NCBI GenBank assembly: GCA_973895155.1
Contig: OZ316899.1
Span: 12,899,934-12,963,933, forward strand
Direction: 5' to 3'
Origin: Marsupella aquatica
Taxonomy: Eukaryota; Plantae; Marchantiophyta
Length of the DNA stretch: 64,000 nucleotides
In this document: piece by piece, positions 8,361 to 62,799 of the stretch
Layout: the number at the start of each line of letters is the position of its first letter
How positions within the stretch are numbered: position 1 is the stretch's first letter
Notes under the pieces: model-generated
What the model saw: the letters and a program-made list of their open reading frames with translations, nothing else
Told to the model about the DNA's origin: nothing
The model's database searches: none
Made by a program: the position numbers and the translations under genes

Positions 8361-8405
8361 GAGGGGAGGTAATCCATAAGTTATTAGTCACTGATATCAG
8401 TGGCC
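8361..8405 (+). repeat. Left TIR of the MULE
   Basis: Imperfect inverted match to 33467-33511, directly adjacent to the TSD. Confidence 0.85.
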
Positions 8406-8419
8406 CCCCTTTTTTTTCT

Positions 8420-8765
8420 AATCTCGGAGATCTCTTCGAGATGGCGACAATTTTTTTTGGCAATCTCGGAGAGGCTCTCCGAGATCCCTACCATTTTTTT
8501 TGGCAATCTTGGAGACCTCTCTGAGATGGCAACAATTGTTTTTGGCAATCTCGGAGAGGCTCTCCAAGATCCCTACCATTTTTATGACAATCTCGGAGAG
8601 GCTCTCCGAGATCCCAACACCCTTCCAGGAGTATGTTGGAGATATGGTAGTTTGTTTGCTCACCATGTCAGAGAGCCTCTCCGAGATACCAACTCACTTT
8701 GCAAACCATCTTCGACTTTCCCATTCCACTTCTAAGACCATCTCAAAGAGCCTCTCCAAGATACA
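8420..8765. repeat. Left subterminal array of the palindrome ATCTCGGAGAG(G/C)CTCTCCGAGAT
   Basis: About 8-9 variably decayed copies at about 42-45 bp period. Confidence 0.9.
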
Positions 8766-8885
8766 AATACAAAAAATTTGCAAGTGATACACATCACATT
8801 CACTTTTCATATATATTATAATGTGTACACAACAACACTTCATCATTGCTACCTTCTCTAAAGCTAACCCATGTTGGCCACTACT

Positions 8886-9966
8886 TTAGTCTATTATCTG
8901 ATATGTGCTCAGGTCATAAATAATCTTCTTTCGCAAGTTTCCTACCTGGCTGCCATCAAAATCCATAGGAGCATCTCGACTTATGCGCTCTGCATAGTTA
9001 AGGATAAATACCCCACAATTTACACTATCTTCTTGTGATGGAAGGCCTGACACTAAAGTTCTAGGCCAGTTGTATGCATCTGGTGACTTGCTTCATCCTT
9101 GATATACCTTGTTAGAGTATACATGAGATACTCATTTCGAGCCTCCCAAAAGTTTCCTGATTTCTCCCAAAGCGAATCTAGGAACAACACCTCATTTCCA
9201 GTTAAATCAATCACTGCCAACACCCAATGCTCCCTGTTTGCCTGGTGGATAGGGACCAATATCCTGTCATAATCAAATATATTTTCTGTTTTGGTCCATC
9301 AAGCAACATTGGCAAAACAATATACGGGCGTTGAGAGCAACGTGTAGAATACTGTGATGAAAAATGCACACTGTGGATAGCCTCTTGATCTCCCCCTAAA
9401 CTGCAACAAGGCCAAGTATGCATCAATGATATCTGAATGTAGCCATTGAGCTGTTGTTCTTCCTTCAGACAAGCATCTCATTGACGCCCTGGTCAACTTG
9501 TAATCTACAAAGTTGAACAATACTTCCTCGTCTGGGAGCTCTGTGGATACTATGTCAAAAAAGTCTTGAGAGCAGACTACTTCAGCAAATAACCCAGGTA
9601 TCCGGGTATTCCCACCACGTGCTGCATAGGATTGAACAGCATGGCATTAGGCATCATCTTGATCTGAGCTATAGGTCACAAAAGAAGGGTGAGCTATCTT
9701 GTCACTATCATTGCTGACACTCTCACTTTCATTGTAGTCTACCTCTATTGCTCTATCATCTACAAATCTAGATTTTTGCCTCTTTGTGTACTTCTCAGCT
9801 ACACCCTTGAGCCGTTTGAAGGGGCGTGAATCAACAATCCCTTCTGCGTAAGTTGGAAGGCAAAATCTTTCTGGAGAGAAAGTTTTCGATGCTTCCTCCC
9901 ATGCTTCACGGACTTTGTCCTTGTCCGATGTGTGCCATTGTTTGGACTTGATGTTCCTGTAGTGAA
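8886..9966 (-). pseudogene. Cargo gene last exon: linker + Ulp1/SENP (Peptidase_C48) SUMO-protease domain
   Basis: WLHSDIIDAYL, FF..FY..L, VPIH...EHWVLAVID...FLDSL, PSQEDSVNCGVFIL (catalytic H, D, C and oxyanion Q present). Acceptor CAG at 9969-9967; premature stops near 9647 and 9299; one frameshift near 9050. Confidence 0.85.
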
Positions 9967-10106
9967 CTGCCTATTGGTTAAGTAGACAGTTTAAGGTAAT
10001 ACCATAATAATGTGGAACTTCACATTTTTATTGATCCTCACCATGGCACCATGTAAATTGCAAACTACCTACAACAAATGGGTTCTTGGATTCAACGTTT
10101 ACTCAC

Positions 10107-10614
10107 AATCCTGAGCATCCCCACCCTTGCCTTCTGCGGCATCCTCCTCTGAATCAGACTCAAGGACCAGCTTCTTCCGCCCTTCAGGCTTCTTAGTCTC
10201 CTTGGCCTCCTCCTTCTTACTCTCCTCGCCCTCCGTCTTGGTCTGATTGCCCTGCTGCGTTGAAAGGAGTTTTGACACCACTGAAGCTGCTGACTCACCA
10301 AAGTAGTCATGCGCTTCCATCCCAAATACTAGTCGCCCACAATTATTGGCAGCTTTGTAGATAGCACCAAAGTGGACATTCCAAGAAAATATGATATCGT
10401 CGGGACTGGTGATGTGCTCTATGATGCATTGCAAGGTTGCAGGCAATAACGTACCGGCTAATTTGTCTCTCACTGCATCATCTTCCTTTGTAAAATTGGA
10501 TAGAGCATTGCTCTTTGCTGGGCACAAGTCACCAGTAATTGGCTTCATATGTACCTTTGGGAGGGTCACCTCTGTACCCTTCATGGTGAATATATCCAAA
10601 TGCAGATATTGAGC
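10107..10614 (-). pseudogene. Cargo gene exon: C-terminal half of N4/N6 DNA-methyltransferase-like fold + acidic tail
   Basis: LQCIIEHITSPDDIIFSWNVHFGAIYKAANNCGRLVFGME parallels the beta-class MTase pattern LERLI..SS.PGD.VLDPFAGSGTT..AA...GR.FIGIE, with a degenerate FxGxG. Phase-compatible CAG acceptor (10617-10615) and GTGAGT donor (10106-10101). Confidence 0.6.
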
Positions 10615-11138
10615 CTGTCACATCATGCAAAATAGATTTGCACTTGTTAGCAACACTAATTAACTTATCCGAATCGGTCCTACCTATCTCAGAGAGGCTC
10701 TCCGTGATTCCAAGTACCTATCTCAGAGAGGCTCTCCAATATGGATCCTACCTATCTTAGAGAGGCTCTCCAAGATCCAAGCTACTTATCTCAGAGAGGC
10801 TCTCTGAGATCCAAGCTACCTATCTCAGAGAGGCTCTCCAAGATCCAAGCTACCTATCTCAGAGAGGCTCTTCGAGATGGATCCTATTTGAGAGAGGTTC
10901 TCCTACCTATCTCAGAGAGCCTCTCCGAGATCCATGGTACCTATCTCAGAGAGGCTCTCCAAGATGGATCAGGCTCTTTGAGATTGATCCTACCTATCTT
11001 GGAGAGCCTCTCCGAGATCAATCTTACCCATATGGGAGAGGGTGTCCGAGATCGTAATTGCGGACACATTTTTCAACTATCTCGGAGAGCCTCTCCGAGA
11101 TGACTTCTATTGAAATGCCAAAATTGAAGTGAACTTAC
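10615..11138 (-). repeat. Intron filled with palindrome array
   Basis: GTAAG donor at 11138, CAG acceptor at 10617-10615; about 12-13 palindrome copies with TACCT/GATCCAAGC spacers. Confidence 0.85.
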
Positions 11139-11598
11139 AGCTTTTTTGCTTGACGCCATGTAGCAAGGTGTGTCATTCCAAATGGTGAATGAGTCAATGT
11201 GATCCAAATTCTCAGCCCAGTCAATGTGAAGGTACTCAAAGATTGAGTTTGTGTGGGCAAATGAACCACTATGCACGATGCACAGGAAACCGTCATTTGT
11301 GAGTAGAGAGTCTACCAATGTCGTCGCCACTTCTAGGTCACTGAGCCGAAATCTATTCCACATCGGAACATTATTTTCAGCGTGCGCTCTGCGATAATTT
11401 GTCCCTAGTTGAACAAAGATCATATCACAACCATGGCCCTTAGGTACACCATCAACTATCCAACCTTGTTTTTGCAAGCCAGCCAACTTCAATTTCTTAC
11501 ACAGTCCCGGAATTCCCTCATGAATGGAGGGAGAGGCAACTTTCCTGTGGTTGGCTGGTATTTGTCCTTCAGCCAAGAAGAACACTCTAGTAAGGTCA
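11139..11598 (-). pseudogene. Cargo gene exon, 3' part: N-terminal half of the MTase-like fold
   Basis: CDMIFVQLGTNY at the position of D-L-I-x-x-DPPY and LLTNDGFLCIVHS (motif VI-like). Continues from 15442-15909 across the solo-LTR insertion, with one frameshift. Confidence 0.55.
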
Positions 11599-11603
11599 TA
11601 TGC

Positions 11604-14600
11604 TGTGACACGGGTAACGTGTCACTTGACCGAACCCAGGTCGTAGATTAGGACTTATACGGTCATTAGGACCGTAGCCATAGCGTAGAATAGCACGTAT
11701 AGCCGTCAAGTTACCATTATGATTAGATTAGGAGTAGGTTAAGATAACCGAATAATTACGAGTTCAGGAAAGGGATTATTACGCACGACCGAGGTACGGT
11801 GGCGGCAGCGGAGTAAAAATCAGTTAGAAGAATCACGCTTGCACCGAGACGCCGACTTCAGCTCGTTATCAATGACCAAATGGCCTGACCTTCTCACGCT
11901 CGGGCTCGTCCGGGCACCCCCATAAGAGAGGAGCCGATGGCACTGCGGGCCATTCGCTCACGTTTACCTTTCTGGAATTCACGGACGCTGCCATCCGCTC
12001 CCCTTTTTGATTGAATCCAGTCGACCTTTACAAGGAAATTATCGAGGGAGAAGAGCGGAATGTGGCAAGATTTAGTCAGGACGAGCGAGGCCTCCGCGAA
12101 AAAGGACCAGCCAGGTGGGAACGTGGACGCAACGAACCGGACTACGAGGTTAGTATGACCCTCACAGCCTTGGGATTTTGGACCTTGTTTGGCGAGGTAG
12201 GTGCTAAGTTCTCCGAGACTTACTGGTACTCTTGCCCCGAGAAAGCCGCTTACGAACGAAGGTACGCGAAGCTGGTAACCAAGGTAGCACTGGTTAATTG
12301 CGAAAGAACAGCCATCACCAGGGATTCTAGCTATAACGAGCTGCGAGACTACATCACCGAACTATATCTCAGCGAGGAAGGGCTTAGATCGGTAGCAGAG
12401 GCGATTCTTGAGGTTCCAGCTAAGTTCTTTAAGCTGAAGGGCAACCAGCGGCTTACTCAAGCGGAGTTCGACAAGATTCCGGGGTACCTAGACCAGCAGA
12501 TCGCAGCCGAAAAGCGCCAAGAAGACATCAGCAGACAACGGGAAGCGGCACGTAATCTCACGTTCCTCGGGGAAAGCTCCAACGCCTTCAACTGGGATAT
12601 GGCTACCCCAGCGCCTCAACCGATGACCACCGGAGTACCGCTGAACCAGTCCCAAGTCCATCCGGTAATCAACGCGGAGTGTTCTTCGGGTTCCGAGCGA
12701 GCTAGTCCGCAGCTCGAACAGCGTCCTCGTAAGCGGTCAAGGACTACGACGGCCCCCGAATCAACACGGACCGACGTCGCGCCTGCACCTGCCCCGGCAA
12801 ACCCCCCGACCAACCAGACCCGACGGCCCCCGGATAACCCAAAGTCCAACTTATTACAGGTAATCCGCGTCCCCGAGGTAGTCTGGATCGCGATCAAGAA
12901 ACTCGAACATGCGGACTATCTCAAGGAGCATCAGTTGGAGCGGTTCGCCCACTTACTATGGAGGCCGTGCGCCACCGGGCCGAAGGAGATTTGTGAGTTC
13001 ATCTCCAATTTCGACACTGATGCGTCAACCACCAAGGTTTCGAGGCAGACCTTATCACTCACGGAGCATCGGTTAACGCAAATTTTTGGCCTACCAACCG
13101 GGCCGGTGCCGGTGGAAATCCGAATTCGGGATAAGGAGTATACACCGCGGCACTTCAAACCCGAGGGTAAGACGGACAACGGATACAAGCAGGGGGCGTG
13201 CACCAACTTAACCTATATGGAGCGGCTTAACTTCGTACGGACTACCCTACACATGATTGAGCCACGATCCGAGATTTCCCTCTGCACGATAGTGCAGGTG
13301 GAACAGTACAAACGACGAAACTGGGCCCAATTCTTCTACCGAAGATTCTCGGGGGAGCTGAAGCGGGCTCAGGGTGGTATGGCTATTGGAGGGAAGACTT
13401 ACTTGGGAAGTCATATCGCCATTATCCTCGCCTGGTACAAGGCACGGCGGGAGGCCAGAGGAAAGAATACGGCCACCTCAGCCCCGGGTAATGTCACCCC
13501 CGCCCCAGAGGAGGCAACCCCGACTACGCGGACTACTGTCCCTCGGACAAACCCCGAGCCGGAAGCCCCGACTAATACTCCGCAACCGCCCCCTGTGGAA
13601 ATTCCACCGCCTCCTTCCGTTGAGCCTCCGCTACCTGCAGTACAACCACCCCCAATCCCTCCACCACCTGAAGAAACCTTCCCCTCCCCAGCGTTGACTA
13701 CGGAGGAGCTCATTGCCCCTGCCGAGGAACCACCAGTACCCGAGAGGATGGAGGACTACCAAGTAGCCCCGGGGACCATGGCCTACGACCTGGTCCAGAA
13801 GTTTAGCCAGACTATGTCTGGAGAGTTGGCGACATACATCGGACAACAAGTCTCGGCGTACTTTCAGCCAGCCTTCTTCATGTTAGAGCACCAACCACGG
13901 ATCGTCAGCCGCTTGGAAGAAGAACTCATGGCGAAGGGGAATGAGATCGGGCGTCTCCAGATGCTGGTAGAGCACCTCGAGGAAGAGGCAACGACCCGCC
14001 GCGAGGATTTAGTCCACACTGTCGAACAGAGGGACGGACTACCCCAGGAGTTAAGCGGAGCGCAGGCCGAACTCAAGAAGCTGGACGACACCGTGCTTCA
14101 ATTACGCTCAGAATCTTCGGCTCGGGTTACCAGCCTGACCGACCTCAACAAACAATTCCTGCAGGCAGCACAGCAGGTGGCTAGTCTCTCCGCCGAACAA
14201 GATAAATTGCTAGCGCAAGACCAGGTCCATCGCGACGCCATCGACCAGCTCAACTTGGAGGTGGCGCGGCTCCAGACTGAAGCCGATGAAGCTGCAAACG
14301 AGGCGGAGGAAGCATTACGGGACAACAAGGCTTTGCAGGACCGCGTCACCCTGCTCGTCCTCCAGCGGGGAAAACCTGGGCCCACCTCTGATCAAGGCGG
14401 CTCGAGGTCTTGCCCCGACAAGGGGACCAGCCCGGGTCCAACCACTGCACACACGTAAGGGGTAGTTAGCGAATGGTAGAAGCAGGCGCCGCGCGAGGCG
14501 GTTAAGTCAGCGACATCTTTTAGTTAGGCGTAACGACAGAATGACTGTCATTAGGCGCCGATTAGCGGCAGTAGGAAGAATTAGGGCCAGTCAGTTAGGA

Positions 14601-15441
14601 TCAGCCAACGTAGGATTGAGTCCATCAACGGACTAGAGTTTGTCAGTAGGCTTGGCCGCTGCCATTCTGGTTGGCACACTCGTAGTCGACGGTCAACCGG
14701 TCAGTGCAGCGCGACCAGTAGTCAGCAGTTAGTTAGTCAGTAGGTAGTACCCTGGAAGGTAGTATCCTCCGGTTCTCTTCCGCTATGGTGGTATTTAGGC
14801 TCCCCCTTCCGCGATGGGAAGGGGGAGAAGGCTTAGTTATCTCAGCAGAAGAAAGGCGAGGCACGGGGAGTCCCGGCCTGAGTAGGGTCAGAGCGTACCA
14901 AGGAGTGAGAGCCAGAGTCGAGCTTGCTGGGCAAGTGCGAGGCAGGGCCTCGTAGAGACTGGGCATCGACTGCCGTTGGGCCTGCTGACCCCCTTTGAAG
15001 TCGAGTCAACCATGTAAACTGATGCTTCGCTGACTAAATGTAGTCTTTTCCCCTTAATGTTTCTGAGAGTAACTGGTGTTGTGTGTATGCTTCGTCCAGG
15101 CAAAGGCGCCATTTTAAGGGACGTACCGGGTGCGGACTAATGGTAGGGATTGCCACTCATTGCATGTCACAAGGTCCTGTCACGTCGATGGCTTGAAAAG
15201 CCCCAAGTCGGGAGTTAGTCCGCGTCACTAACTGAGGGAAAATTCCAGCGGTGGAAAATAAATATACCTATGACAAGTACGAATTATGCGAGTGTTATAC
15301 CAGTAAGTATAGCGGCTTAGCCCGACTTAGGGCTATTGAAGGTCACTACACACCTCCTTGCCCGAACCCTCACCCCTACTGGTGGTCGAGGTCGCACCAC
15401 GACACTAACCCGGATTTAAGGCCCAGGGTAGGGGTGCGACA
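11604..15441 (+). mobile_element. Giant (3838-bp) ORF-carrying Gypsy solo LTR
   Basis: TGTGAC...GCGACA ends; 5-bp TSD TATGC (11599-11603 and 15442-15446). The last 110-120 bp match the reverse complement of 53394-53520, which is followed by a PBS and gag. Confidence 0.85.
12011..14458 (+). CDS. LTR-internal protein: PMD-like/plant-transposon domain + Pro-rich linker + coiled coil
   Basis: Uninterrupted 815-codon ORF (first ATG at 12155). The segment EFISNFD...LSLTEHRLTQIFGLP...NWAQFF...YLGSHIAIILAWY aligns with 48577-50605. Confidence 0.75.
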   Translation: MNPVDLYKEIIEGEERNVARFSQDERGLREKGPARWERGRNEPDYEVSMTLTALGFWTLFGEVGAKFSETYWYSCPEKAAYERRYAKLVTKVALVNCERTAITRDSSYNELRDYITELYLSEEGLRSVAEAILEVPAKFFKLKGNQRLTQAEFDKIPGYLDQQIAAEKRQEDISRQREAARNLTFLGESSNAFNWDMATPAPQPMTTGVPLNQSQVHPVINAECSSGSERASPQLEQRPRKRSRTTTAPESTRTDVAPAPAPANPPTNQTRRPPDNPKSNLLQVIRVPEVVWIAIKKLEHADYLKEHQLERFAHLLWRPCATGPKEICEFISNFDTDASTTKVSRQTLSLTEHRLTQIFGLPTGPVPVEIRIRDKEYTPRHFKPEGKTDNGYKQGACTNLTYMERLNFVRTTLHMIEPRSEISLCTIVQVEQYKRRNWAQFFYRRFSGELKRAQGGMAIGGKTYLGSHIAIILAWYKARREARGKNTATSAPGNVTPAPEEATPTTRTTVPRTNPEPEAPTNTPQPPPVEIPPPPSVEPPLPAVQPPPIPPPPEETFPSPALTTEELIAPAEEPPVPERMEDYQVAPGTMAYDLVQKFSQTMSGELATYIGQQVSAYFQPAFFMLEHQPRIVSRLEEELMAKGNEIGRLQMLVEHLEEEATTRREDLVHTVEQRDGLPQELSGAQAELKKLDDTVLQLRSESSARVTSLTDLNKQFLQAAQQVASLSAEQDKLLAQDQVHRDAIDQLNLEVARLQTEADEAANEAEEALRDNKALQDRVTLLVLQRGKPGPTSDQGGSRSCPDKGTSPGPTTAHT

Positions 15442-15909
15442 TATGCTCTTTTGCATGGCAAAATTGCAGGGCAGATGTAATAGCATGAGAGGGCCGAGGT
15501 ACTCCCAAAATTTTGCAAAGATCATCCTCCAGAATTTCCGGGGCTTCTGTTGAAACTGGCTTCTTTGTGGGTTTGTCTATTCTCTTCTTGACTTTCTTCT
15601 TTGGCCGACTGGTTGGCTTACCAGAGATCTGTGGTTTGCTTGGGGTCCCACTTGGGGTCCCGCTTGGGGTTGAAAGGTCAGGCTCCTCCTCCTCCTCATG
15701 GCCCTCTGCATTGTCCCCGGTGGCCATCTCATCCTCCTCTCCATTGTCCCCACTTGCCGCTTTCTCATCCTCCTCTCCATTGTCCCCACTTGCCGCTTTC
15801 TCATCCTCCTTTCCATTGTCCCTAGTCTTTCTTGGCTCCATCTTCTCATCCATCGGACGACGTTTGCTTGAGGTAGACCCTGGGGTTCCAAACTTTTCTT
15901 TACTTTTTT
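15442..15909 (-). pseudogene. Cargo gene exon, 5' part: acidic/basic low-complexity linker with NLS-like KKKVKKR
   Basis: Acceptor CAG at 15912-15910 is phase-compatible with the donor at 16018; contains GDNGEEDEKAAS repeats. Confidence 0.75.
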
Positions 15910-16018
15910 CTGCAGAACAAAGTAAGGAGTTTAGTATACATTTTACAATGATACTATCTCGGAGAGGCTCTCAAACATAGGTCAGATGTACAATGCAAGC
16001 TAGGGTGTAAAACCTTAC

Positions 16019-17298
16019 CAGGAGTGCCTTGTTCTGAGGTGGTGTCTTCTGATTCCTTTTCTTTCTTCCCCCGAACCTTCTTCCCATCATACTCTGGCTC
16101 TCCAAGAGGCAAAATGGCCTCCAAGTCCAATGCAGCCTTTGTCGACTGCTCAAGATCTGGCAACTTTGAAGGCGCAAAAAGGTTGTCTCGTAGTTTCCCT
16201 TCCTTTAGGAGGTTGGCAGCTTCCTTCTCTTTGGGCGTAATGAACTCATTCCAATCATTGAACTCCATGAACCATGGACAATTTTGTCTCTCCCAGTCTG
16301 AAAAGACTCTTGCTGTTGGCTTCAGCCCATCTGTTGGATACATTGACAGCAGGCCTTTCTCCATCATCCATGCAGTCAGAGCACTTGGTAACACTTTGAA
16401 AGTAGAGGCTCCAATGCTCTCCTGATGAAGTAAATATCTGACCACACACCTCTTTGCACGCTTCCTCCACATATCTTTGCTTTGCTTTGCTGGATTCCAC
16501 ATCTTCTTGCCCTCCTCATAGGACCAAGTCTGTACAAATTTCTTGTACATCTTGTTGTGAAACTCAACAAACTCGTCTTTGCTTCCATTGAAGTTTTGCC
16601 ACTCACCAGAATCATATGCACTCTTGGCAAACTCTGACATGATCAAACTGCCAACATGGGCAATGTAACACCACATTGACCACACTAGCAACCAAGCTCT
16701 CACTGCTGAATCACCATATACATCTGGATGGTGGTGTCGCTTCTTCTCCTCCGCGGTTGAGAAATGAATGCGGAGTAACTTGTTTCGACACTCAACAGGC
16801 ATCACCGCACTTGCAAACAATTTAACTTGATCCAACCCCACTTGCACTTGTGGCCGATCTTTTTGTTTACTCTGCAACTGGTGCAGCTCCTCGGCAATCT
16901 CCAAAAATTCCTCTCCATTTGCTGGATTGACAATCTGAGCAAACTTTTGCATTTTGCCCTCCCAAGACCTACAGGCTTCACTTGTCATGAGTGCGGTTTC
17001 CTTTTGGAACTTATCCGAACTCCAGGCATGGCCAATTGCAGCATCGACTGCCATCTCCTTCGCAAGACGAATCCTCCCGTCTTCAATATTATTCCACAAC
17101 ATGATGTACACAGCAGCATCCTTTGTCATGCACTTGCTATACCATGTCTTTCCATGCCCATGGCTTCTTGCTACTAAGAATCTAGCATAACCATCCGGAT
17201 GAAGCAATGTCTGATACTCCTCCAAAGGTGTCATCAACAGCTTCTTCACCCTCTCTGCATCGGTCAACCAAGATGCCTGCACAAGATTTGCGCTTATC
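16019..17298 (-). pseudogene. Cargo gene exon: large predicted helical region (open throughout)
   Basis: Part of the 454-aa ORF 15954-17318. CAG acceptor at 17301-17299 and GTAAG donor at 16018 keep frame with both neighbouring exons. Confidence 0.8.
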
Positions 17299-17882
17299 CT
17301 GCGTAAAAGAAGCGACAAATGTTGGCGTCAAAGGCTATGTACAAGAAAATTACATCTCTGTCAGATGCTCTCCGAGAAGTCATGGATATCTCGGAGAGGC
17401 TCTCTGAGAAGGCATCGCTCTCCAAGAAGGCATTGATATCTTGGAGAGGCTCTCCGAGAAGGCATGGATCTTGAAGAAGGCATGGATATCTCATAGAGGC
17501 TCTCCGAGAAGGCATGGATCTTCAAGAAGGCATTGATATCTTGGAGAGGCTCTCCGAGAAGGCATCACTCTCCAAGAAGGCATTGATATCTTGGAGAGGC
17601 AATTGAGAAGGCATCGCTCTCCAAGAAGGCATGGATATCTTGGAGAGGCTCTCCGAGAAGGCATCGCTCTTCAAGAAGGCATGGATATCTCGGAGAGGCT
17701 CTCCGAGAAGGGAAGGTTCTTTCTATCTTGGAGAGCCTCTCCAAGATAGCATTTTGAGAGCCAAACATTGTATGTGTGTATGTATCTATCTCGGAGAGCC
17801 TCTCCAAGATAGGATAGCCTATGTGGGTGCAAAAGAACAACAAATGCAAGAACAACCAAAAACCAAGGGGGCAGTCACTTAC
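17299..17882 (-). repeat. Intron containing palindrome array (GAAGGCAT spacers)
   Basis: GTAAG donor at 17882, CAG acceptor at 17301-17299; about 9 palindrome copies plus half sites. Confidence 0.85.
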
Positions 17883-18556
17883 GCATTGAGGCCGTGCATT
17901 GCTTGCTCAATCTTCTTGAATCCTTGTTTTCCAGGTTGTAGAAGAGAGAATCTCACGCAAGGGTGGTACTTTTGCTCGTCAGGATACTCTTCAGCCACTT
18001 GTCTCCATGCATTCAGGCAATGATTTCCATCAAACACCCAAAACATCTTACCCTTCAAAATGTGAAACTCCTCGTACTCATCACACTCCATCTCAAATTT
18101 TGCGTTAGCTTGTTCCCATAGAGGGTCCCAATCCACGGAAAATTCAGACATGGAGTGGGTGGCATTATGCGCATTGGTCTTTGATATGTGGAATTCCAAA
18201 AACTTGTCCACATACCCATTCTTCACGAAGTCCTTCTTCATCTTGAGAATGGAACTCTGTTGGAGAGTCCAAACTGCCTCCATTGTCATCAAACGACATA
18301 GTGGAATCCAAGGTGGCTCTCTGGGCTTCCCGCTTGGTTCAGCTCCAAATGAAACCAAGTACTCCCCAACAATCCCTTCGAATGCACCTTTGTTCAAATG
18401 TTCAGCAGACACATTTTCAAAGTTTAGAACCTTCGGCTCCAGCTTCTTCACTGTGTGAGTTTCCCGACCACTGGCAGTGCTCTCTGCTGTCTTTGATCTG
18501 GTCTGCCAACCAGACAATGAAGGAGAGGGAGTGGGTTTCTTCCTCTTCCCTGTCAT
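17883..18556 (-). pseudogene. Cargo gene first main coding exon: ParB/Sulfiredoxin-like N-terminal domain
   Basis: WIPLCRL...V(W)TL...ILKMKKDFVKNGY...FWVFDGNH(C)LNAW. TGC and TGG are one CpG transition from CGC and CGG, which would restore DGNHR and VR. ATG at 18556; basic KRKK near the N-terminus. Confidence 0.7.
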
Positions 18557-18584
18557 TTTCAAATCTCACCAACTACTGAATTGC

Positions 18585-19050
18585 ACGAGCACAACTTGCA
18601 CAGCACTTGCACCGCCCACAGCTCAGTCGCAGCAAGCTCAATCACTGGCAGTGGCACAACACACAACACAATCGCATCGCTTGCACAGCACTCGCACTCG
18701 CACCGCCATAGGTCACCGCACTCAATCGCACCGCTTCCACCACTCGCACTCACAATCGCACCACCACAACTTAGTCGCAGCAAGCTCAATCACTGGCAAT
18801 GGCACAACACACAACACAATCGCACCGCTTCCAGCACTTGCACCACCACAACTCAGTCTCAACAAGCTCAATCACTGGCAGTGGCACAACACACAACACA
18901 ATCGCACCGCTTTCACAGCACTCGCACTTGCACTACCACAGGTCACCGCACTCAATCGCACCGCTTCCACCACTCGCACTCACAATCGCACTGCTTCCAG
19001 CACTCACACCACCACAGCTCACAACACACAACTCATAGCACACAGCATGC
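18585..19050. repeat. CA-rich minisatellite duplications in a probable first intron
   Basis: AAGCTCAATCACTGGCA(G/A)TGGCACAACACACAACACAATCGCA occurs three times; GTAAG donor on the - strand at 19080. Confidence 0.7.
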
Positions 19051-19614
19051 GGAGAGGGAAAGATCGCAAAGCAACTTACGCTCTCCGAGAAACATGAGGT
19101 AAATTGCATTTGCACTCGCACTCGCTCGGCCTCAATTGCTCGCCTTTCAAATGAGGAAAGGCGAGAGACGGCGGGGACTCACCAAAGTAGTCATCATCAT
19201 CATTAGGCAAAGGAAGATCTAGGGGCATCACAACTGAATTCACTATCGCCATCACGCAGGTCGAGTCCCATCCAAGCAACAGGAGATCTATGGGACCACT
19301 CATTGATTACAAGTGGTAGGGGCCATGGGAGGAAGTTGACATGTTAGCAGTTTATTGGCTTATATGTAGTCATACTCTGATAATGATGAATGCCTAGATT
19401 TGACTCATGTTAGAGTCGCAACACTGAAGTACCTGTACAGATGCTTTCATTATTACTCCCCCTTCACACCATAATGTCCTTGGTACGATTGATTCCAGAC
19501 CAGATAAGATTTCCTATAATTCCTTGGTATTAATGAGTACGATCGTTCAACGACCGGATTTAATTCCAAAAAATATACAGTACTTGCATGACATGTCAGG
19601 CCAGTCTCAACTTC

Positions 19615-20730
19615 CTCATTGTCTCCGAGATGACATGTCACGCCAGGACCCATGTCAGAGAAGCTCTCCACTTTGACATGTCATGGAGGACCCATGTCGG
19701 AGAGGCTCTCCGAGTTGACATGTAAAGTGGGGACTTAAGTCGGAGAGGCTCTCCCAGATGACATGTAAAGTGGGGACTTAAGTTGGAGAGGCTCTCCGAG
19801 ATGACATGTCATGGAGGACCCATGTCAGAGAGGCTCTCCGAGTTGACATGTAAAGTGGGGACTTAAATCGGAGAGGCTCTCCGAGATGACATGTAAAGTG
19901 GGGACTTAAGTCGGAGAGGCTCTCTGAGTTGACATGTAAAGTGGGGACTTAAGTCGGAGAGGCTCTCCGAGTTGACATGTAAAGTGGGGACTTAAGTCAG
20001 AGAGGCTCTCCCAGTTGACATGTAAAGTGGGGACTTAAGTCGGAGAGGCTCTCCAAGATGACATGTAAAGTGGGGACTTAAGTCGGAGAGGCTCTCCAAG
20101 ATGACATGTAAAGTGGGGACTTAAGTCGGAGAGGCTCTCTGAGATGACATGTAAAGTGGGGACTTAAGTTGGAGAGGCTCTCCCAGATGACATGTCATGG
20201 AGACCCATGTCAGAGCCTCTCCAAAATTGAATATTACACAAGATCAGACCTCGGAGAGGCTCTCCGAGATGACATATCAGGTTGGTGATAACTTTGGAGA
20301 GCCTCTCTGACAAATATTGGGCCTAATCCTTGCTACACACCTGAAGATGGCATCTCGGAGAGCCTCTCCAACATGGGTGGAGACTTCATACCTGCGCAAG
20401 ATGCTATCTCGGAGAGCCTCTCCAACATGGGTCAAGGCTACATACCTCCGCAAGATGGCATCTCGGAGAGCCTCTCCAAGATGAAACTTGGTGAGATCCG
20501 GTGCAAGATCTAATCTCGAAGAGCCTCTCCAAGATGAAACTTGGTGAGATCCGGTGCAAGATCTAATCTTGGAGAGCCTCTCCAAGATGGGTCGAGGCTT
20601 CATACCTCCGCAAGATGGCATCTTGGAGAGCCTCTCCAAGATGAAACTTGGTGAGATCCGGTGCAAGATCTAATCTCGGAGAGCCTCTTTAACATGGGTT
20701 GAGGCTTCCAGATGGCATCTTAGAGAGCCT
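19615..20730. repeat. Intergenic palindrome arrays, including a 43-bp tandem GACATGTAAAGTGGGGACTTAAGTCGGAGAGGCTCTCCGAGAT
   Basis: About 13 tandem 43-bp units (19630-20230), then about 10 further palindromes with different spacers and a central C. Confidence 0.92.
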
Positions 20731-20774
20731 AATGGACACCCTAAACTAAGTCCAATAAACTTAGTCACTGTCAA

Positions 20775-21016
20775 TAACAGTTTTCACGCTCACTCACAAG
20801 GGTACGTTGTCAAGAAGGATTCTCACATATTCAACGAGGAAAGAATATTTGAAACAATTTTTACGCTTGGTCTAGGCGATAAGGTACTCTGACAAAACAA
20901 TCTTGACATATTCAACAAAGAAAGAAGCGAGTCTAAGAATTTTTACGCTCTGTCTAGGCAGTAAGGTACTCTAACAAAACAATCTTGACATTCAACAAAG
21001 AAAGAAGCGAGTGTAA
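20775..21016. repeat. Tandem repeat of about 83 bp (left part; split by a Copia insertion)
   Basis: TTTTTACGCT...GGCGATAAGGTACTCTGACAAAACAATCTTGACATATTCAACAAAGAAAGAAGCGAG units continue at 26167-26380. Confidence 0.8.
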
Positions 21017-24000
21017 TGTTGTAAGGTGTGGAATAACTGATCACTTCATTTATCATCTCCCCATTACATATAGCTCCTATGGAGGCTAGGTAGTTAGGCG
21101 GTTGGAATTAGCCTAACTGTAGTAGGGTTTAACCCTAGGTAGGGTAGGTTTAGGTATGGGTTATAACACCCCCCCTTGGGTGTAACATGACCCGGGGTAA
21201 TGTTGCAACCATCTAAGAAAACCCTACTCTAATGTGTAATATGTCCTAGTCTTTGAAAGGTTTATAGTTAGGAATGAAAATGTAACCTCATTAAAACCCC
21301 CTCTCCTTTCTTGTAGGGGGAAAGAGTGTTACCATTTTCTCCAAGCTATATGTTAATGTAAAGTTATTGTAGTCTGTTAAAAAAAAATTAAGTGGGTTGT
21401 CTTATAGACTTTGTACCTATATCGTTTGGTCAGTAGCCTTATACAGTAAGGTTCTACTGTAATTTGCGTGTAAGTCCTCTACGTGCTACAGGTCCAAAGT
21501 TAGTCGTAGTTTGCGTTTAGGGCAGTGGAACTATGTGGAATTCGATAGGTTCATCTGTTTGATCGAGAGTGTTCGAGGTGGCGTTCGATGTTCGGGCTGC
21601 TTTCGTTGCCGTGTTCGCAGTTATCAGGTTATGCGCTGCTGCATTTTAGGATCGTTGTTCTTGATGATGTGGGGCGCTTCTCTTCGGTGGTTCGTGATCG
21701 GGGCACTTGCGCATCAAACGAGTTGTGGTAATGTTGGATTCTTTCTGCTTCATTGGCGTGAGAGTGTGTTGTGTGCTTTCTTCTCCCCCTGATGTGGTAT
21801 TTTCTGGTTGCTCCTTCACGCATTGTTGTGTAGTTGCAAGGTTCAATTTTATTCTCCTCCTGGGCAGGAGACAAGTAGGTCAGAAGCAGTCCGAAAGGTG
21901 TTAGTCCTGCAATGCAGTTAAGTTGCGCAATCCTATAGAGAATGTATGTTGTCTGTGTAGTACAGGGGGAAGTGATTTCATAAACAAATCTGCGATGTTT
22001 TGGGAGCTTTGTATCCATTTAACTGCGATGCTATTGCCTTGCTGTTCATGCGTAAAGAAAATTTTGGGGGCAATGTGTTTGGTTTGATCTCCCTTGATAA
22101 AGCCTGCTTGAATTTGTTCAACGTAGGCTCTGTTATCTTCGTGAATTTCTGTTGGTGTTGACAGTGTAGGTATGCCTGTGTTCTCATGGATGTGATTGAT
22201 GATGTTGCATAGCCAAATGCACTCCTTGCTTGATTCATAGAGAGCTATAATTTCCGAGTGATTTGACGATGTAGTTGTTAGTGTTTGCTTGCAACTTCGC
22301 CATGAGATTGCGGTCTGGCCCATCAAGAAGACGTACCTGGTTTGAGACTTCGCGTCCTCCGGGTCTGAGAGGTAACCTGCATCAGCATATCCTGTAAGTG
22401 AGTAATTAGTTTCGGATGGGTAAAACAGTCCCAGATCCTTGGTACCCACAAGATAGCGGAAAATGCGCTTTATCCCATTCCAATGCTGAATAGTTGGCTT
22501 GGCACTAGGGCGAGCCAATAGATTGACTGCAAAGGCGATACCTGGCCTTGTCTGGTTCAAAAGGAACATCAGGACACCTATAGCAGATAGGTATGGCTTC
22601 TCTGGGCCAAGCAATGGCTCCATTTCATTTCTCTTTCGGAAGATATCCTTTTCTTTGTCAAGTGAGCGGATGTCCATGGGGGATCTGACTGCAGTGGCTT
22701 TGTCCATGTTGAATTGCTTCAAGATTTTCTTGATGTACGTGGACTGATGCAGGAAAATGCCATTGTGCAGGTGCTCAAATTGTAGTCCTAGGTAGAAAGA
22801 AGTCTGCCCTAGGTCGCGCATCTTGAAAGCCTGTTTTAGGAGTATGATAGTTTCAGCCATAATTTTTCTTGTTCCGAACAGGTTCAGGTCGTCCACGTAG
22901 ATGGCTACTATAATAAATTCTCTATTTTCCTGTTTCAAAAACAGGGTGCAATGTTGGCATTTGTAAATCCCATTGCCAACATTTATGACTTAAAATGTTT
23001 ATACCATGTGAGGCCACTTTGCTTGAGGCCATATAGGGATCTTAACACCTATACTGCAAATCGAGTTCTTCGGGTGGTGTCCCTTTGATGTTGGATAGGA
23101 TCTGTTAGTGCTATCTTCGCTGCAGTCTTGTGGAGTATCGCTGAATTTGTATGCTTGAATGTTTCCGCCTGGTTGTGGATTCCAGCTTTATGTGTTTGTT
23201 TCCCTTTGCTGTGATACTCGACTTATTTCACCAGTTCTGGTGGAGCTTCCATGTATATGACTTTGTCTAAGTGTCCATATAGGTAGGCTGTTACAATATC
23301 CATTTGGTGCATGGATAAGTTGTGGCGTTGTGAGAATGTGATAAGGTACCGGTAAGTGATGACATCCATTACCGGCGAGTATGTTAAGTCGTAGTCCCTG
23401 TCGGGGACTTGTGTGAATCCCCTGGCCACCAATCTTGCCTTGTGTCTGGTTACTTCGCCTTTCGCATTCCTTTTCTTGACCAGTGTCCATTTATAGCTTG
23501 TGAGATGCACCACAGGTTCTGCTATTGTAATTGGTCCAAATACCTGGCGGGCTATCAATGAGTCCAGTTCTAAATGAATGGCTTGTTCCCATTCAGGCCA
23601 ATCAGGTTGGGCCTCAGCTTCTTTAATTGTTCGTGGATCTGGTAATTCCTCTTTGATCTGCTATGCTATGTGGAAGGCGAAGTGTTCGTCTATCGTGGTA
23701 TGGTCTCTGTCCCATACATGTCCAATTCTTCCATAGTTGATTGATATCTCTACATTGTCTTCTGGTACATTTGGTTGGATTGGGGTTTGGTCTCTGATCA
23801 ATGTATTTGGTGGAGATGTTGGGGCGGTTTTGCGCTGTCTTGGCTATCTATTTGCAGATCCCAGTGGGCGGCCTCTCTTTGCTTTCGGTGCAATGATTGA
23901 TGCTGGTGGGGTCTCCATTTGGATTCTTGATGGGGCGTTTGCTGCTGGAATATGGGAGAGCGGGTCACTTGGGCGGCATCTGTAAAGGAGTCGGGTAGGT

Positions 24001-26161
24001 GTTCTACCATCCTGGCCAAGTGGAGGATCCGTTGTACTTCAGTGTCTGCGTGGCTGTCCCGTGGGTTGTTCCAGAATTCAGCATCAATTTGCCAAGTAAG
24101 GTGAGTATTCTTCTCTGTGTCAAGTTGTTGTTTCGTTTGTAAACTGGGAAAGATCTCTTCATAGAAGTGGCAATCTTGGGTTTCTCTGATGAGCTTCTAG
24201 AACATTGTCGTTCCAGGGTGGCCAAGTCTCTTATGCCAGATCTTGGTAAGTGTTCCTTGGGGTGCTTCAATGCGGAAACTGTAGATTTTAGTAGTATAAC
24301 AGCCAGGGGGTGAAGCACATAGGATCTCTCTGATCTTTGTGTTTGGTGGTTCCCCCAAGGTAATGTACAAAACCTCTCATCCATCTTGGGTGCCCGTCTT
24401 GATGTGTAGCTTGTTAGCACGGATATCTCCGAAGCTCAGTAAGTTCCTGGTTGCCTTTGGAGCATAAATGGCAGACTTCACCTGAATGGGCGTGCCGCCA
24501 GGTAGGGTGACCACTGCAGGTCCAAATCCCTCTTCCAATTGGTGCTGGCCCATAATAGTTGTTAGTTTTCTTTGTGATGGTATAATTTGCTTAAATTATT
24601 CCTTATGCTTGAAAATGGAATGCAATGTACTGCTGTTGACTATGTAGTGGGATAGATTTTCTTTTATGGTAGAGTCGTCGCTTGATATAGTCATATTTTA
24701 TAGATGGTATTAGGTCAGTGGATTCTAAGAAGGTCCCATATGTCTCAGGTTCATTTTGTTCAATGCTCTTCTTATATAATTGTACAAGGTGTATAGGGGC
24801 ACGGCAGAATTTTTGAATGTGGCCCTCAGTGCTGCAACGGACACATATAGAGGGGTTTTTGTATTTATCTCTTTGAGCGCTTTGCTGATGAGGTATCCTC
24901 GCTTGGGGTTGAGAATTGTCTCTTTGCCCATTGTTTCTGAAGTTGTATCCATTGTTTTGATATCTTCCCCTAGATCTGCCTCTGAAAGAGTTTTTCTGCC
25001 CCCGCTTCCTCTGAAGGGACCTCCTCGACCTCTATTTGTGTTTCTCCCCCTGAAGCTGCCTCGGCCGCGGTAAGATGATCCCTCTCCCCTTTGAGTTGTC
25101 ACGTAATGAGATTCTGTGTTTGTGACTGGGGGGAGGGTGCCAGGAGGTCATTTTTGGGAGTTCTGTAATAGCAATAGCTTATGCTTCTCAGCTAGGAGCA
25201 TATGTGCGATCAATTCGGAGTATTTGGTGAATCGCATGTTGCGGTATTGCGTGGAGAGGATGAGATTGGTAGAGTGGAGGGTGGATAGCGTTTTCTCAAT
25301 TTGTTCTTCATCATTTACAGGGTGGCCACATATGGCCAGTTGTGATACTATCCGGAATAACTCGTAGTTGTAGTCCGCAATCGTCTTATGGTCTTGGACT
25401 CTAAGATTGATCCAATCATGTCTGGCTGCAGGCAGGTATATGGTGCGCGTGTGATTGAAGCGGGATTGGAGTTCTTCCCAGAGGATCCTTGGATTGTATT
25501 CGTTCATGTACTGCCGCTTCAAGGAGTCGCTCAAATGGTGTCTAATTAGTATCAATGCCTGCGCCTTTTGCTGGAGAGTTAGGCCATTGTCAGTTATTAC
25601 AGTATCCTGTAGATTCTTTGAAGTTAACTGAGCTTCAGTATCAAGCGACCAGGACAAGTAATTGGCGCCATCGATGCTGAGTGGTTGAAATAAAAGTTTC
25701 TCCATGGAATTCGTTGACATTTTTTTGGATAATTTCTTATTGATAAACTCAATTGGTGAAGTTGAAGGAATTGAGAATAAAATTTCAAATCGTGTTCGGA
25801 AAATTTGGAGGTTCTTATCTCATTGCCCGATTTTGTATCCAATTCATTTTGATCATTGACATCCAGTCTCACGGGATGATTTTGGCCACTGCTGCACCTT
25901 TGTCTACTTTTAATCCTTCCCTTAATGGTGGAACAAAATCTTGCTATGGAGGGAAAAAAATGTAATCCCTAAAAAAATTTGATTCAAATCCAACATCGTG
26001 CTGATAACGTGTTGTAAGGTGTGGAACAACTGATCACTTCATTTATCATCTCCCCATTACATATAGCTCCTATGGAGGCTAGGTAGTTAGGCGGTTGGAA
26101 TTAGCCTAATTGTAGTAGGGTTTAACCCTAGGTAGGGTAGGTTTAGGTATGGGTTATAACA
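21017..26161 (-). mobile_element. Copia LTR retrotransposon (Bianca-like), integrase core deleted
   Basis: 152-bp LTRs at 21017-21168 and 26010-26161 (2 differences); TSD TGTAA; PBS CGTTATCAGCACGA; PPT; gag 25148-25720; RT YVDD and RNase H YADAGYLSDP at 21901-23558. Confidence 0.95.
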
Positions 26162-26166
26162 TGTAA

Positions 26167-26380
26167 CAGTTTTTACGCTCGGTCTGGGCGATAAGGTACT
26201 CTGACAAAACAATCTTGACATATTCAACAAAGAAAGAAGCGAGTCTAACAGTTTTTACGCTCTATCTGGGCGGTAAGGTACTCTGACCAAACAATCGTCA
26301 CATATTCAGAAAGAAAGAAGCGACTCTAACAGTTTTTATGCTTTGTCTGGGCGATAAGGTACTCTGACAAAACAAAGTCA
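26167..26380. repeat. Tandem repeat of about 83 bp (right part)
   Basis: Same unit as 20775-21016, about 3 copies. Confidence 0.8.
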
Positions 26381-26599
26381 TAAGAATCAATAACAGTTTT
26401 CACATACTGTTTGCTGATTAAGTTACGCTCTTGAGAAACAAAGAGGAATTGAGCAAGCCGGAAAGGCAATAACATCCCTTACATGAACGAGGCATCTCTC
26501 GGTAGATGCCACTTGAACTCTCTTGGTGCTCATTTTTAGTCTTTCTTCAAGTGGTTACACATCCTTTGCGATGTGTAAAGGCTGCCCATTCCATTCTCA

Positions 26600-29154
26600 G
26601 AGTGCATTATCCCCAACGAGTCATGACTCTGCCGGAATGGTATGATGGGGATTGCATTTTTTAGCTCCCCCCATTCACAGGTATCCACACAAAGGGTGCC
26701 TTCTTCTTGGGTATGGAGCGGAGAAATGACTGCTACTTGTGGAGCAAGCTCATCAAGACAGGGGCCCAAATTGGACCCAACCTGAACAAGGGAGGCTTCA
26801 AGTATAAGATTGGGAATATGAGATGCCTGGGCTCTTTGCAATGTCCACATTCAGATTGTCCGGCTTTTACAAGTAAGAATGAGCGCAATTGCACAAAATG
26901 GCAGCGAGATAGGGGTGGGAGAAATGAGGTTTCATTTCCTGTTGGGCGACTAGTTCCAGTAGAGAGTGTGATTTGCGCCTTTTGTGATCGGCCTCCTAAG
27001 TGTATAGCCAAGTGTCCAGCCAAAATGTTCTACATCACTCCAACCTCTCATGACCATTACATTTACAAGCACATGACATGTGTTGCTATGTATGTTGGGA
27101 GTCACTCACATCCGGCCAAATTTGTTCTTAAGAAAGATTGAAAAGCTTTCTTACATAAGTTGATGGAGGAGAAATTGAAGAAGAATCCTCATGCAATGCC
27201 GTCTGTGATCAAGAGTGACACAATTAAAGCCCCAAGGGATATTTTTGATGACAAGGTTGTTGGGATTGTCACATTTGAGGAAGCACAGGATCTGAATGAA
27301 ACATTGGCGATCCTATCAGATTGATTAGTTGTAAGATCTATGATATAGAGCATACGCAAGTATACCCATGCCTCATCCGACCTCCAAGTCATCCTTGAAC
27401 TTCAAAAAGAAACAATGTTTTCATTTGTCCAGAGCACTCTATTTCCAAACCAGAAGCTAGATACAGATGAGCGCCCACACATTTTCAAGATGACTGTAAA
27501 GGGTCCAGGGTCTGGAATCGATCTCATTCAAAGGATGCAGCCTAGTGGAGATCTACAAGACTCATGGGTGATGGTTGATGTCATGCATCGGATGACTAAG
27601 AAGCAATGGTGCACAATGTCAGCTCATGTATACGACCACCTATACATAGGTATCTGCACAATTTTTGTATGCGACCTAGTTTTGAAAGATACTGTTGCAC
27701 TACAAACTGCATGGAAGGTCATGAAGCGAGTGTGTAAGGCAAATGGGCTTGACAATGTTACATTTTGTGGGTTCATTGCCAATAATGCTGCAGTTGGGTG
27801 GAATGCAGTTTGAAACATATTCTAAGATGGAAGAATTAATTCTCAAAATGAGCAATCTGATGCATTTCACTGGGCGCAATGAGTGGAGAAGATGACAAAG
27901 AAATGCATTCTTCCAGGCAAAGCAGTTGATCATAAGGAGCTTCTGGATTCATTGAGGGACGCTGCCAATGTGGTTCTTGCATTTCGGACTTTTGAGAAGA
28001 TGAAGGATTGGTGGAAAAATGGGAATGCAATCAAAGGAAAAACCAAGTCACTAGAGACATGGCTTTTGTGGTGGATTGTGCAGTTCTCCCAATGGGGAAA
28101 CTTTATTCGGCTGGTAAGTCTATGAATTCTTAGTAATATTCCATCTCGGAGAGGCTCTCCAAGATGATTAATCTTGGACATGTTAGAGAGCCTCTTCGAG
28201 ATGGACGACGTGGGTTTTCTCGGAGAGGCTCTCCGAGATGGAACATATGGGTAATCTCCGAGATGGAAGACGTGGGTCATCTTAAGGAGCCTCTCCGAGA
28301 GCCTCTCCGAGATGGAACATATGGGTCATCTCGGAGAGGCTCTCCAAGATGGAACATATGGGTCATCTCGGATAGGCTCTCCAAGATGGAAGAGGTGGGT
28401 GTTCTTGGAGAGGCTCTCCGAGATGGAACATATGGTCATCTCGGAGAGGTTCTCCGAGATGGAAGAGGCGGGTCATCTCGGAGAGGCTATCCAAGATGGA
28501 AGAGGTGGGTCATCTCGGAGAGGCTATCCAAGATGGAACATATGGGGTCTTGGAGAGGCTCTCCAAGATGGAAGAGGTGGGTCATCTCGGAGAGCCTCTC
28601 CCAGATGAAACAAATGGGCGACTCGGAAGACATATTAGAGAGCCAACTTTTGTTTTGTAAACACATGGTTCATCTTAGAGAGGCTCTCCGAGATGAAACA
28701 CCATCAATCCTGGTGATTCAATGGTGAGTCCTGACGATGTAATTGTGGACTTGAATAGTTACCCTGAGCAGATGGATCCATTGAAGCCTGATGTTAGGCT
28801 GAGTCGGCGCAATGGCAAAGGAGATCGGTTGTGATGGCAGATGCAAAGAAACATATTGAGAGTGCCAAATCCGAGTTGATGAGGTTCACTTCCATGACTC
28901 AAATTGAAAAAGGGAATGCAACTGGCTTACAAGTGGTACTTTCCAACACTCATCGTGACCGCAATTCAGCCCATTGTGTACACATATGTGTGTTCCCAAC
29001 TTGCTCTTGTCAAGATTTCATCATGAGAGATACTAGAAGATACTTCTTTCCTTGCAAACACTTGTATTGGTGCTATAAAAACATTTATGGACAAGATCTA
29101 GAGAGTGACCAAGAGATCCACCAGCCAATCTTGACACTTAGGCGAGCTTCGTAA
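26600..29154 (+). pseudogene. MULE transposase: GCM/WRKY-like Zn domain, DDE core, SWIM finger
   Basis: CLGSLQCPHSDC...CAFC...CPAK...GSHSHP (26707-27141); WVMVDVMHR...FCGFIANNA...FHWAQ (27415-27880); intron donor at 28114; CSCQDF...PCKHLYW (28831-29154); several premature stops. Start position approximate. Confidence 0.85.
28114..28700 (+). repeat. Transposase intron filled with palindrome array
   Basis: GTAAGT donor at 28114; about 14 palindrome copies with GGAACATATGGGTC / GGAAGAGGTGGGTC spacers; acceptor not resolved. Confidence 0.85.
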
Positions 29155-29260
29155 ATTGGTGTCAAATGTAGCAGGCTCAGGGTGGATGCATGTCAAAGAT
29201 GTTTCGGGTTTAGTGGGTAGAACGATCTACTTTTGTATCCTTTCATAATAATAAATGTTC

Positions 29261-32200: not shown

Positions 32201-32889
32201 GAACGGACCAAGGGCATTGAAGAACAAATACCTTAATCAAATCCACAACAACGACACACCAAAGATTTTGAACATCAACCATGCACAAAAGTGGCGAGGA
32301 CAACCTCCAAAATGGAGATGAGACAACCAATCACCAGAGGAAAGGAGCCGACGACCGGAACACAACCCACGACCACCAAGAACACAAGCTCCAACCAAGA
32401 CTAGGGCACAACGCCACCGACTACAAATCCGCAACATTACTCGGGAAAATACCACAACATCAAACCCGACTACAAGACCACCGCACATCAGTAACAATAC
32501 CCCATAGTAGAGAATACACCGCATAAACTACAATACAACACCCTATTCACTTTTCATCCAAAGATGGTAGCACTCTTTCCTCCTGCAAGAAAGGAGAGGA
32601 GGTTTTAATGAGGCTACATCAACACCACCTTCTCATTCTTTTACTAGAACTACATTACACAATCAAATAGTTAACACCCTCACAGTAGACTCAATATGGT
32701 TGCATCACCTTAACCAAACCCATGATGCGATGCACCCAAGGGGGAGTGTTAGAACCCATAGGTTAAGTCTACTCTAGGGTAAGGTTTAACACCAAACCTT
32801 AGGTAGTGACTATTAAAGTAACCACCTCAATGTATAAAGACCTCACACATGAATGAGAAGAACCACATTATTCTGGTGGTGTTTCAACA
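29261..32889 (+). mobile_element. Copia LTR retrotransposon (Bianca-like), integrase and most of RT deleted
   Basis: 143-bp LTRs at 29261-29403 and 32747-32889 (about 2 differences); TSD TGTTC; PBS CGTTATCAGCATGA; PPT AAGGGGGAG; gag 29872-30723; protease ESGTTH; RNase H 31250-32164. Confidence 0.95.
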
Positions 32890-32894
32890 TGTTC

Positions 32895-33455: not shown

Positions 33456-33466
33456 AAAAAAATGTT

Positions 33467-33511: not shown

Positions 33512-33520
33512 GAGCACTTG

Positions 33521-44855: not shown

Positions 44856-44878
44856 TTCTCAGAGGGAGCAAAACCAGA

Positions 44879-62795: not shown

Positions 62796-62799
62796 ATGT

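Follow-up and report, generated by a model that had tools for sequence, protein, structure and literature searches.

The 64,000-nucleotide stretch of Marsupella aquatica contig OZ316899.1 analysed here (hereafter, the window) carries on its minus strand an intron-bearing gene which raises the question of what a protein of ParB and DNA methylase type is used for in a liverwort transposon. An earlier note, made from the sequence, had drawn this gene as one continuous frame of 1490 codons joining a ParB/Sulfiredoxin (Srx)-like part, an N4/N6 methylase-like part and a Ulp1 SUMO protease. The analysis points to a different layout. The gene is best explained as an accessory gene of a Mutator-like transposon, whose 1236-residue product combines a predicted ParB/Srx fold with a methylase domain that is likely dead, and whose frame ends at a likely genuine TAA at 9649-9647. 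The protein would bind the element's own palindromes and protect the element from silencing, and the Ulp1 behind it would remove SUMO. We put the chances of this reading as a whole at about even.

All six exon coordinates, the GT-AG intron ends and the phases (2, 1, 0, 1) were verified, and the joined exons make 4471 nt, or 1490 codons. Spliced up to the TAA, with an X at the gap at 11501, the gene yields 1236 aa with one X, one terminal stop and no internal stop. The cargo gene is real and well preserved. Bacterial contamination was considered as a source and ruled out by the spliceosomal introns and the nested plant long terminal repeat (LTR) elements. Tandem GT-rich repeats with units of about 82 and 148 bases, unrelated to the palindrome described below, lie immediately before the start codon (18590-18980).

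Other copies of the gene were seen via the contigs of four sequencing runs (X1-X4) from two studies, the best of six runs that contain parts of the window and of which none is recorded as RNA. The contig pieces are mostly 90–99% alike, which indicates a multi-copy family. At 11501, every one of the four runs has contigs that supply the missing base (at 93% of depth in X1, 100% in X2 and about 25% in each of X3 and X4), and all four read a sense codon in place of the TGA at 9301-9299 (82–100% of depth). At 9083, 16 bases are missing from the window copy; an X2 contig supplies them, loose ends mark the spot in the other three runs, and this gap accounts for the last frameshift and the TAG at 9055. 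These three breaks are private to the window copy. Loose ends at 9542/9549 in all four runs point to an additional in-frame gap. Of the two frameshifts and two premature stops that the earlier note proposed to repair, the 11501 gap, the last frameshift and the TGA are repaired elsewhere, whereas the status of the TAA at 9649-9647 as a premature stop is not confirmed.

At that TAA, no variant was found among the 40 of 52 variant rows for the 3′ end on which these statements rest; the bin has depth in all four runs, contigs cover the site and a variant at the neighbouring position 9661 is listed. Among the Riccia proteins with the tail motif described below, 11 of 12 end 55–76 residues after the motif start, and the window protein ends at 72. 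Because the other copies, which repair the other breaks, show no variant here and 11 of the 12 Riccia proteins end there, the TAA is likely family-wide and genuine; its explanation as copy-specific decay was discarded. A single ParB–methylase–Ulp1 frame of 1490 codons is therefore not supported as drawn: at the DNA level, a probably genuine stop lies between the methylase and Ulp1 parts in intact copies. What stands is a ParB/Srx domain and a methylase-derived domain in one intron-bearing transposon cargo gene, with a eukaryotic Ulp1 behind it.

The fold of exon 1 was studied using a structure model built from a 120-sequence alignment (predicted local distance difference score, pLDDT, 84); a single-sequence model was uninformative (pLDDT 35). 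The first Foldseek match was ParB (E 0.013, probability 1.00). A wide structure search gave 12 rows that reached Z 2, every one of them from the ParB/Srx superfamily, and the best structural match was KorB (Z 7.2, root-mean-square deviation 2.8, 93 residues aligned). Exon 1 is thus predicted to adopt a ParB/Sulfiredoxin-type alpha-beta fold, and the ParB/Srx call made earlier for the N-terminal part is borne out. The family conserves two arginine-bearing nucleotide-binding motifs, VR-x-L and DGNHR; in the window copy, both arginines are lost (W and C instead). Pfam and PDB sequence searches did not detect ParB, the sole match being DndB in 3 of 120 members (E 0.028). Pattern scans of prokaryote genomes and viral contigs found no relatives of exon 1, the method being insensitive and giving no evidence on origin. 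The exon 1 domain has the fold in common with prokaryotic ParB, KorB and Srx, but no prokaryotic sequence relative of it was found.

The methylase part was recognised through its homologues. A profile made from 21 Riccia methylase-like pieces finds exon 4 and the second half of exon 3 at E about 1e-9 when the window is searched as 1560 frames. PF01555 is matched by 16 of the 21 pieces and borne by 25 of 30 Atlas matches, and the profile compared with five prokaryotic methylases gives a 96% match over 61 columns (E 1.9e-9). Searched directly, the window exons gave no PF01555 match in Pfam, and the methylase part gave none in PDB. The order of the motifs, IV then I, is that of the beta class. 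By sequence comparison, exons 3-4 derive from a beta-class N4/N6 DNA methylase (PF01555), with which they have fold and motif order in common, but the similarity is remote: phage and plasmid matches are weak (tblastn E 0.1–1). No alignable prokaryotic ParB–methylase fusion was found. A UniRef label, 'trimethylguanosine synthase', on Riccia homologues was dropped in favour of the PF01555 matches.

The earlier methylase-like claim holds for ancestry; what it overlooked is that the motifs are degenerate. Motif IV reads DMIFVQLG in the window, DCLYLDLPTG in Riccia, DFIFFDVPFG in a fern and DMVLCDPPYG in a phage, and motif I reads IIFSWNVHFG, IVIDFAGGWG and VVLDFTMGSG in the window, Riccia and phage, respectively. 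Both the catalytic (D/S/N)PP(Y/F) motif and the S-adenosylmethionine-binding D-x-F-x-G-x-G motif are lost in the window domain. The one motif IV variant listed in other copies is silent, with the Gln kept in all four runs. So many motif changes would not fit the decay of a single copy that lies a few percent from its family, and the domain is likely inactive throughout the window gene family.

Searching with exon 1 gave 187 relatives with an E of at most 0.001, and 15 of 20 examined were assigned to Riccia sorocarpa, Adiantum and Calypogeia fissa. The closest named protein is from Calypogeia (52% over 110 aa of exon 2), in agreement with a liverwort host. A word-indexed search gave no match for exon 2, though another search found homologues (15 matches). 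The 1236-aa product is collinear over its full length with Riccia protein P0182 (1244 aa), with a global score of 718 against at most 28 in 20 shuffles, and exon 5 aligns with the last 94 residues of P0182. The tail motif, Y-x-L-P-x-Y-A...F-V-D-D-x-A, occurs in 12 of 207 stored proteins, whose ends are mostly V-x-L-S-S-D-E-E (window: profile E 0.0025). We take the acidic end of exon 5 to be a SIM-like (SUMO-interacting motif-like) stretch. The intron 1 position is identical in four of four metagenome loci, and the Calypogeia gene model shares the exon 1-2 junction with the window gene. The Riccia hypothetical proteins (e.g., R1sor_007218, P0182), Calypogeia fissa CAM6094717.1 and the Adiantum hypothetical proteins are direct, collinear homologues, with the C-terminal motif shared by Riccia. 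They differ in being unannotated, in having no Ulp1 in any model examined and, for Riccia, in retaining more of both methylase motifs. A term search of the main text of the Riccia genome paper (PMC11735767) found no Mutator, MULE or methyltransferase.

One Adiantum protein, P0080 (1176 aa), carries a NIF/FCP1-like phosphatase (E 2.4e-12) behind the ParB-like part and the domain next to it, i.e., another eukaryotic chromatin-related enzyme at the C-terminal position; it may be a merged gene model.

The Ulp1 (Peptidase C48) domain that the earlier note placed behind the methylase part is confirmed by matches to PF02902 (E 4.7e-15) and SENP2 (E 2.6e-18, homology from about 9535). The His, Asp and Cys triad and the oxyanion Gln are present (REHW, FLDS, QEDSVNCG). 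The first in-frame ATG lies about 18 codons downstream of the start of the SENP2 homology, so the domain needs an upstream start, reached by splicing past the TAA, from a separate transcript or by read-through. For such splicing, position 9622 offers a candidate phase-1 acceptor that has a CTAAT branch-like site and fits either the exon-4 donor (10106) or a GTGAGA donor at 9726; since 10 of the 14 AG sites in this part are of that phase, little is proved by the fit itself. Splicing round the stop is a tentative choice, somewhat short of even, a separate transcript is a possibility of slightly lower standing, and read-through or non-expression takes the smaller remainder. That intact copies make a ParB–methylase–Ulp1 fusion as a splice form skipping the TAA is possible without being probable. 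Such a form would be compatible with the anti-silencing reading and also with a role in transposition (see below). It would explain the SENP2 homology upstream of the first ATG, it has the acceptor with its branch-like site and two donors of fitting phase, the Ulp1 frame is open in other copies, and a review (PMC13317346) describes Arabidopsis KIU genes as VANC-Ulp1 fusions. Set against this are the phase fit, which comes cheaply, the absence of PF02902 from 30 of 30 long homologues and 30 of 30 scanned, and the fact that removal of this intron would cost the protein its conserved end.

The gene had been placed correctly as transposon cargo, but the complete Mutator-like element around it, with its palindrome arrays, had been overlooked. 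The element sits in the chromodomain-coding end of a Ty3-type element. Its second gene, a broken transposase-like gene, gave no match to a MULE DDE transposase in Pfam or PDB and a weak SWIM match (E 0.031); it has what we take to be Mutator-type motifs, and the element is assigned as Mutator-like because of its ends and these motifs. A 21-bp palindrome, TCTCGGAGAG[C/G]CTCTCCGAGA, has 50 matches at up to 2 mismatches and none in 100 shuffles. When 3 mismatches are allowed, there are 62 copies, all of them inside the element and none in exons. The pattern ATCTCGG-N9-CCGAGAT recurs in intron 1 of metagenome locus L007, whose protein is 45% identical, and a degenerate copy is present in L008. The gene call P0010, 53% identical to exon 1, reads into intron 1 and ends in HLGEAR, which is the palindrome translated; hence the P0010 family likely has the motif too.

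On the anti-silencing reading, the protein would bind the palindrome arrays of its own element, presumably as a dimer, because the palindromic site is symmetric. The dead methylase fold may act as a DNA- or protein-binding module, the acidic tail would bind SUMO, and the adjacent Ulp1 would likely strip SUMO from chromatin at the element. The outcome would be an element kept free of host silencing, in a VANC-like manner. Support comes from the features described above and, by analogy, from the layout, which VANC and the red-algal Plavaka ParB gene share. Several points weigh against this reading. No helix-turn-helix or other DNA-binding domain was identified, and exon 2 has no Pfam or PDB match. 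Phage ParBs can activate a DNA-modifying enzyme, a DNA oxidase, without an evident DNA-binding domain (PMC13229309). The fold scores are middling (best Z and Foldseek E as given above), if with a uniform match list. The palindrome was not found in L009 or L010, where only short intron sequence was available, and the arrays could equally be transposase sites. As to the stop, the evidence is an absent row among the 40 of 52 listed, from contigs of two studies; the Riccia gene models are fragmentary, and Riccia elements may lack Ulp1 altogether.

ParB folds bridge DNA, and the arrays next to both terminal repeats would suit a protein that serves transposition, holding the two ends together like a ParB clamp or the CACTA TnpA helper. 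Most palindromes, however, occupy introns or the intergenic stretch at a distance from the ends, as published for VANC, and the Ulp1 and the SIM-like tail point to chromatin; we consider this role rather unlikely. A more improbable alternative is an active N4-cytosine or N6-adenine methylase marking its own element, as proposed for algal transposons. The beta-class motif order would agree with it, Riccia and fern homologues retain D-x-P (DLPTG, DVPFG), Riccia also retains DFAGGWG, and liverworts use bacterial-type 4mC methylases, as stated in bioRxiv 10.1101/2021.02.12.428880. The window family, though, has QLG in motif IV, with Gln in all four runs, and SWNVHFG in motif I, and the aromatic residue of DPPY is absent even in the Riccia copies.

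It is very improbable that the gene was passively captured and does nothing for the element. Both genes are indeed broken in the window copy, but the breaks in the cargo gene are private to that copy, and liverworts, ferns and the four metagenome loci retain the order of the domains, the place of intron 1 and the residues of the motifs. The anti-silencing role stays the preferred reading.

Similar genes are known from algal transposons. The Ectocarpus element Sola1-1_Ec32 has an accessory gene for a 1104-aa protein with ParB-like and N4/N6 methylase parts, on the strand opposite to the transposase of a giant DNA transposon. The protein was proposed to bind and modify its own element, and similar ParB–methylase proteins were reported from green and red algal transposons (PMC12477816). 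It shares ParB and methylase in one protein with the window gene. Compared by description only, it belongs to a Sola element of a brown alga, whereas the window gene belongs to a Mutator-like element of a liverwort, has lost the methylase motifs and has Ulp1 behind it. In the Bostrychia Plavaka elements PAG2/PAG3, a ParB accessory gene lies beside tandem inverted-repeat arrays, and the element carries adenine methylase cargo (bioRxiv 10.1101/2025.02.11.637652), as in the window element. Unlike there, the Plavaka ParB is fused to a 2-oxoglutarate (2OG) oxygenase, the methylase is fused to SET in a separate gene, and the host is a red alga and the superfamily EnSpm. Chlorophyte and chytrid ParB-fused adenine methylases were traced to phage loci (PMC4738411).

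The VANC and KAONASHI (KIU) genes of Arabidopsis VANDAL elements are likewise Mutator accessory genes with non-coding motif arrays and, in some members, Ulp1. VANC motif arrays sit in introns, intergenic and terminal regions (PMC5735166), and Ulp1 cargo in plant Mutators and VANC-Ulp1 fusions have been reviewed (PMC13317346). VANDALs have no terminal repeats and use 8–9 bp non-palindromic motifs, whereas the window element has terminal repeats and a 21-bp palindrome. The window protein has ParB and methylase folds, and Pfam gives no VANC-type family for its exons. The novelty assumed earlier is therefore lower, since ParB–methylase cargo was known from algal DNA transposons and Ulp1 from plant Mutators. 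A land-plant ParB–methylase transposon gene, or one with Ulp1, was not found in the literature searched, which did not extend to subscription papers.

The idea that ParB–methylase transposon cargo binds its own element has so far been proposed, never tested. The window gene comes with an explicit candidate site, the 62-copy palindrome of 21 bp, whose geometry is kept in a 45%-identical relative. With such a site and a family present in liverworts and ferns, a transformable land plant can be used to test the idea. If true, transposon counter-defence extends beyond VANC, and a bacterial partition module has been reused in the plant nucleus, linked to SUMO removal. A bolder version, which we regard as doubtful, is a second Mutator anti-silencing system in seed-free land plants, unrelated to VANC and arising from a bacterial ParB/parS-like pair. 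Its ParB-fold protein would load onto the palindrome arrays, and its methylase would be a decaying enzyme that turns into a binding module from lineage to lineage. A splice switch at the stop would decide between a tail that binds SUMO and a fused protease that strips repressive SUMO from the element. The features of the element are listed in Table 1.

Table 1. Coordinates of the cargo gene and other features of the Mutator-like element in the window.
Feature	Position	Strand	Evidence
Mutator-like DNA transposon, 25,151 bp, or about 12.5 kb after subtraction of three nested LTR insertions	8361..33511		9-bp duplication GAGCACTTG at 8352-8360 and 33512-33520, imperfect terminal inverted repeats
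Left terminal inverted repeat	8361..8405	+	aligns with reverse complement of right end
Palindrome array, left subterminal	8421..8770
Ulp1/SENP (Peptidase C48) frame	8886..9646	-	PF02902 and SENP2 matches
Candidate 105-nt alternative intron removing TAA, donor 9726, acceptor 9622, both phase 1	9622..9726	-	sequence only
Exon 5: conserved tail motif, acidic end, then TAA at 9649-9647	9647..9966	-	tail profile E 0.0025
Exon 4: C-half of methylase-like domain, degenerate motif I (IIFSWNVHFG), acidic tail	10107..10614	-	Riccia profile E 2.9e-10
Palindrome array, intron 3	10680..11101
Exon 3, second half: N-half of methylase-like domain, degenerate motif IV (DMIFVQLG), 1-base gap at 11501	11139..11598	-	Riccia profile E 1.4e-9
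Solo-LTR-like insertion, 3.8 kb, splitting exon 3, 815-codon open frame (12011-14458)	11604..15441	+	TG..CA ends, 5-bp duplication, empty site in other copies
Exon 3, first half: acidic/basic linker	15442..15909	-	collinear with Riccia linker
Exon 2: conserved domain, no assigned fold, about 400 aa	16019..17298	-	27–52% identity to Riccia and Calypogeia proteins, 15 matches
Palindrome array, intron 1	17355..17816		related motif in intron 1 of L007 and L008
Exon 1: basic N-terminus and predicted ParB/Sulfiredoxin-fold domain (residues about 57-225)	17883..18556	-	structure model, Foldseek, KorB match
Palindrome array between the two genes	19620..20730
Broken transposase-like gene, divergent from cargo gene, terminal SWIM finger, likely intron about 28114-28771	26665..29154	+	SWIM E 0.031
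Palindrome array, likely transposase intron	28136..28700
Palindrome array, right subterminal	32894..33440
Right terminal inverted repeat	33467..33511	-	aligns with left end

The splitting of exon 3 by a solo LTR, as the earlier note had it, was verified: the insert is 3838 bp long, with TG..CA ends and the 5-bp duplication GCATA, and no internal LTR pair was found inside it. Contigs of X1 and X4 pass straight through the empty site, and loose ends occur at 11604. The 815-codon frame of the insert is intact, has a coiled-coil end and is without a family match; an LTR carrying a long gene is unusual. Contig depth of the insert is 20–40 times that of the host element, and its 3′ end is similar to 53391-53507, just upstream of a gag-like frame.

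The other two nested insertions are of Copia type, one on the minus strand at 21017-26161 (5-bp duplication TGTAA) and one, internally deleted, at 29261-32890 (5-bp duplication TGTTC). The former is flanked by an 82-base repeat unit (20775-20982, 26164-26375) upstream of the transposase-like gene, possibly a promoter repeat. Outside the Mutator-like element, a 627-codon frame at 39891-41774 with 12-base tandem repeats and no family match is likely a retroelement accessory gene, and a broken long interspersed nuclear element (LINE) lies on the minus strand at 43056-46340. A Harbinger-type transposase is encoded at 62478-63816 (DDE_Tnp_4, E 1.7e-11), with repeats at 60512-62064 and, in a frame on the opposite strand, a possible partner gene.

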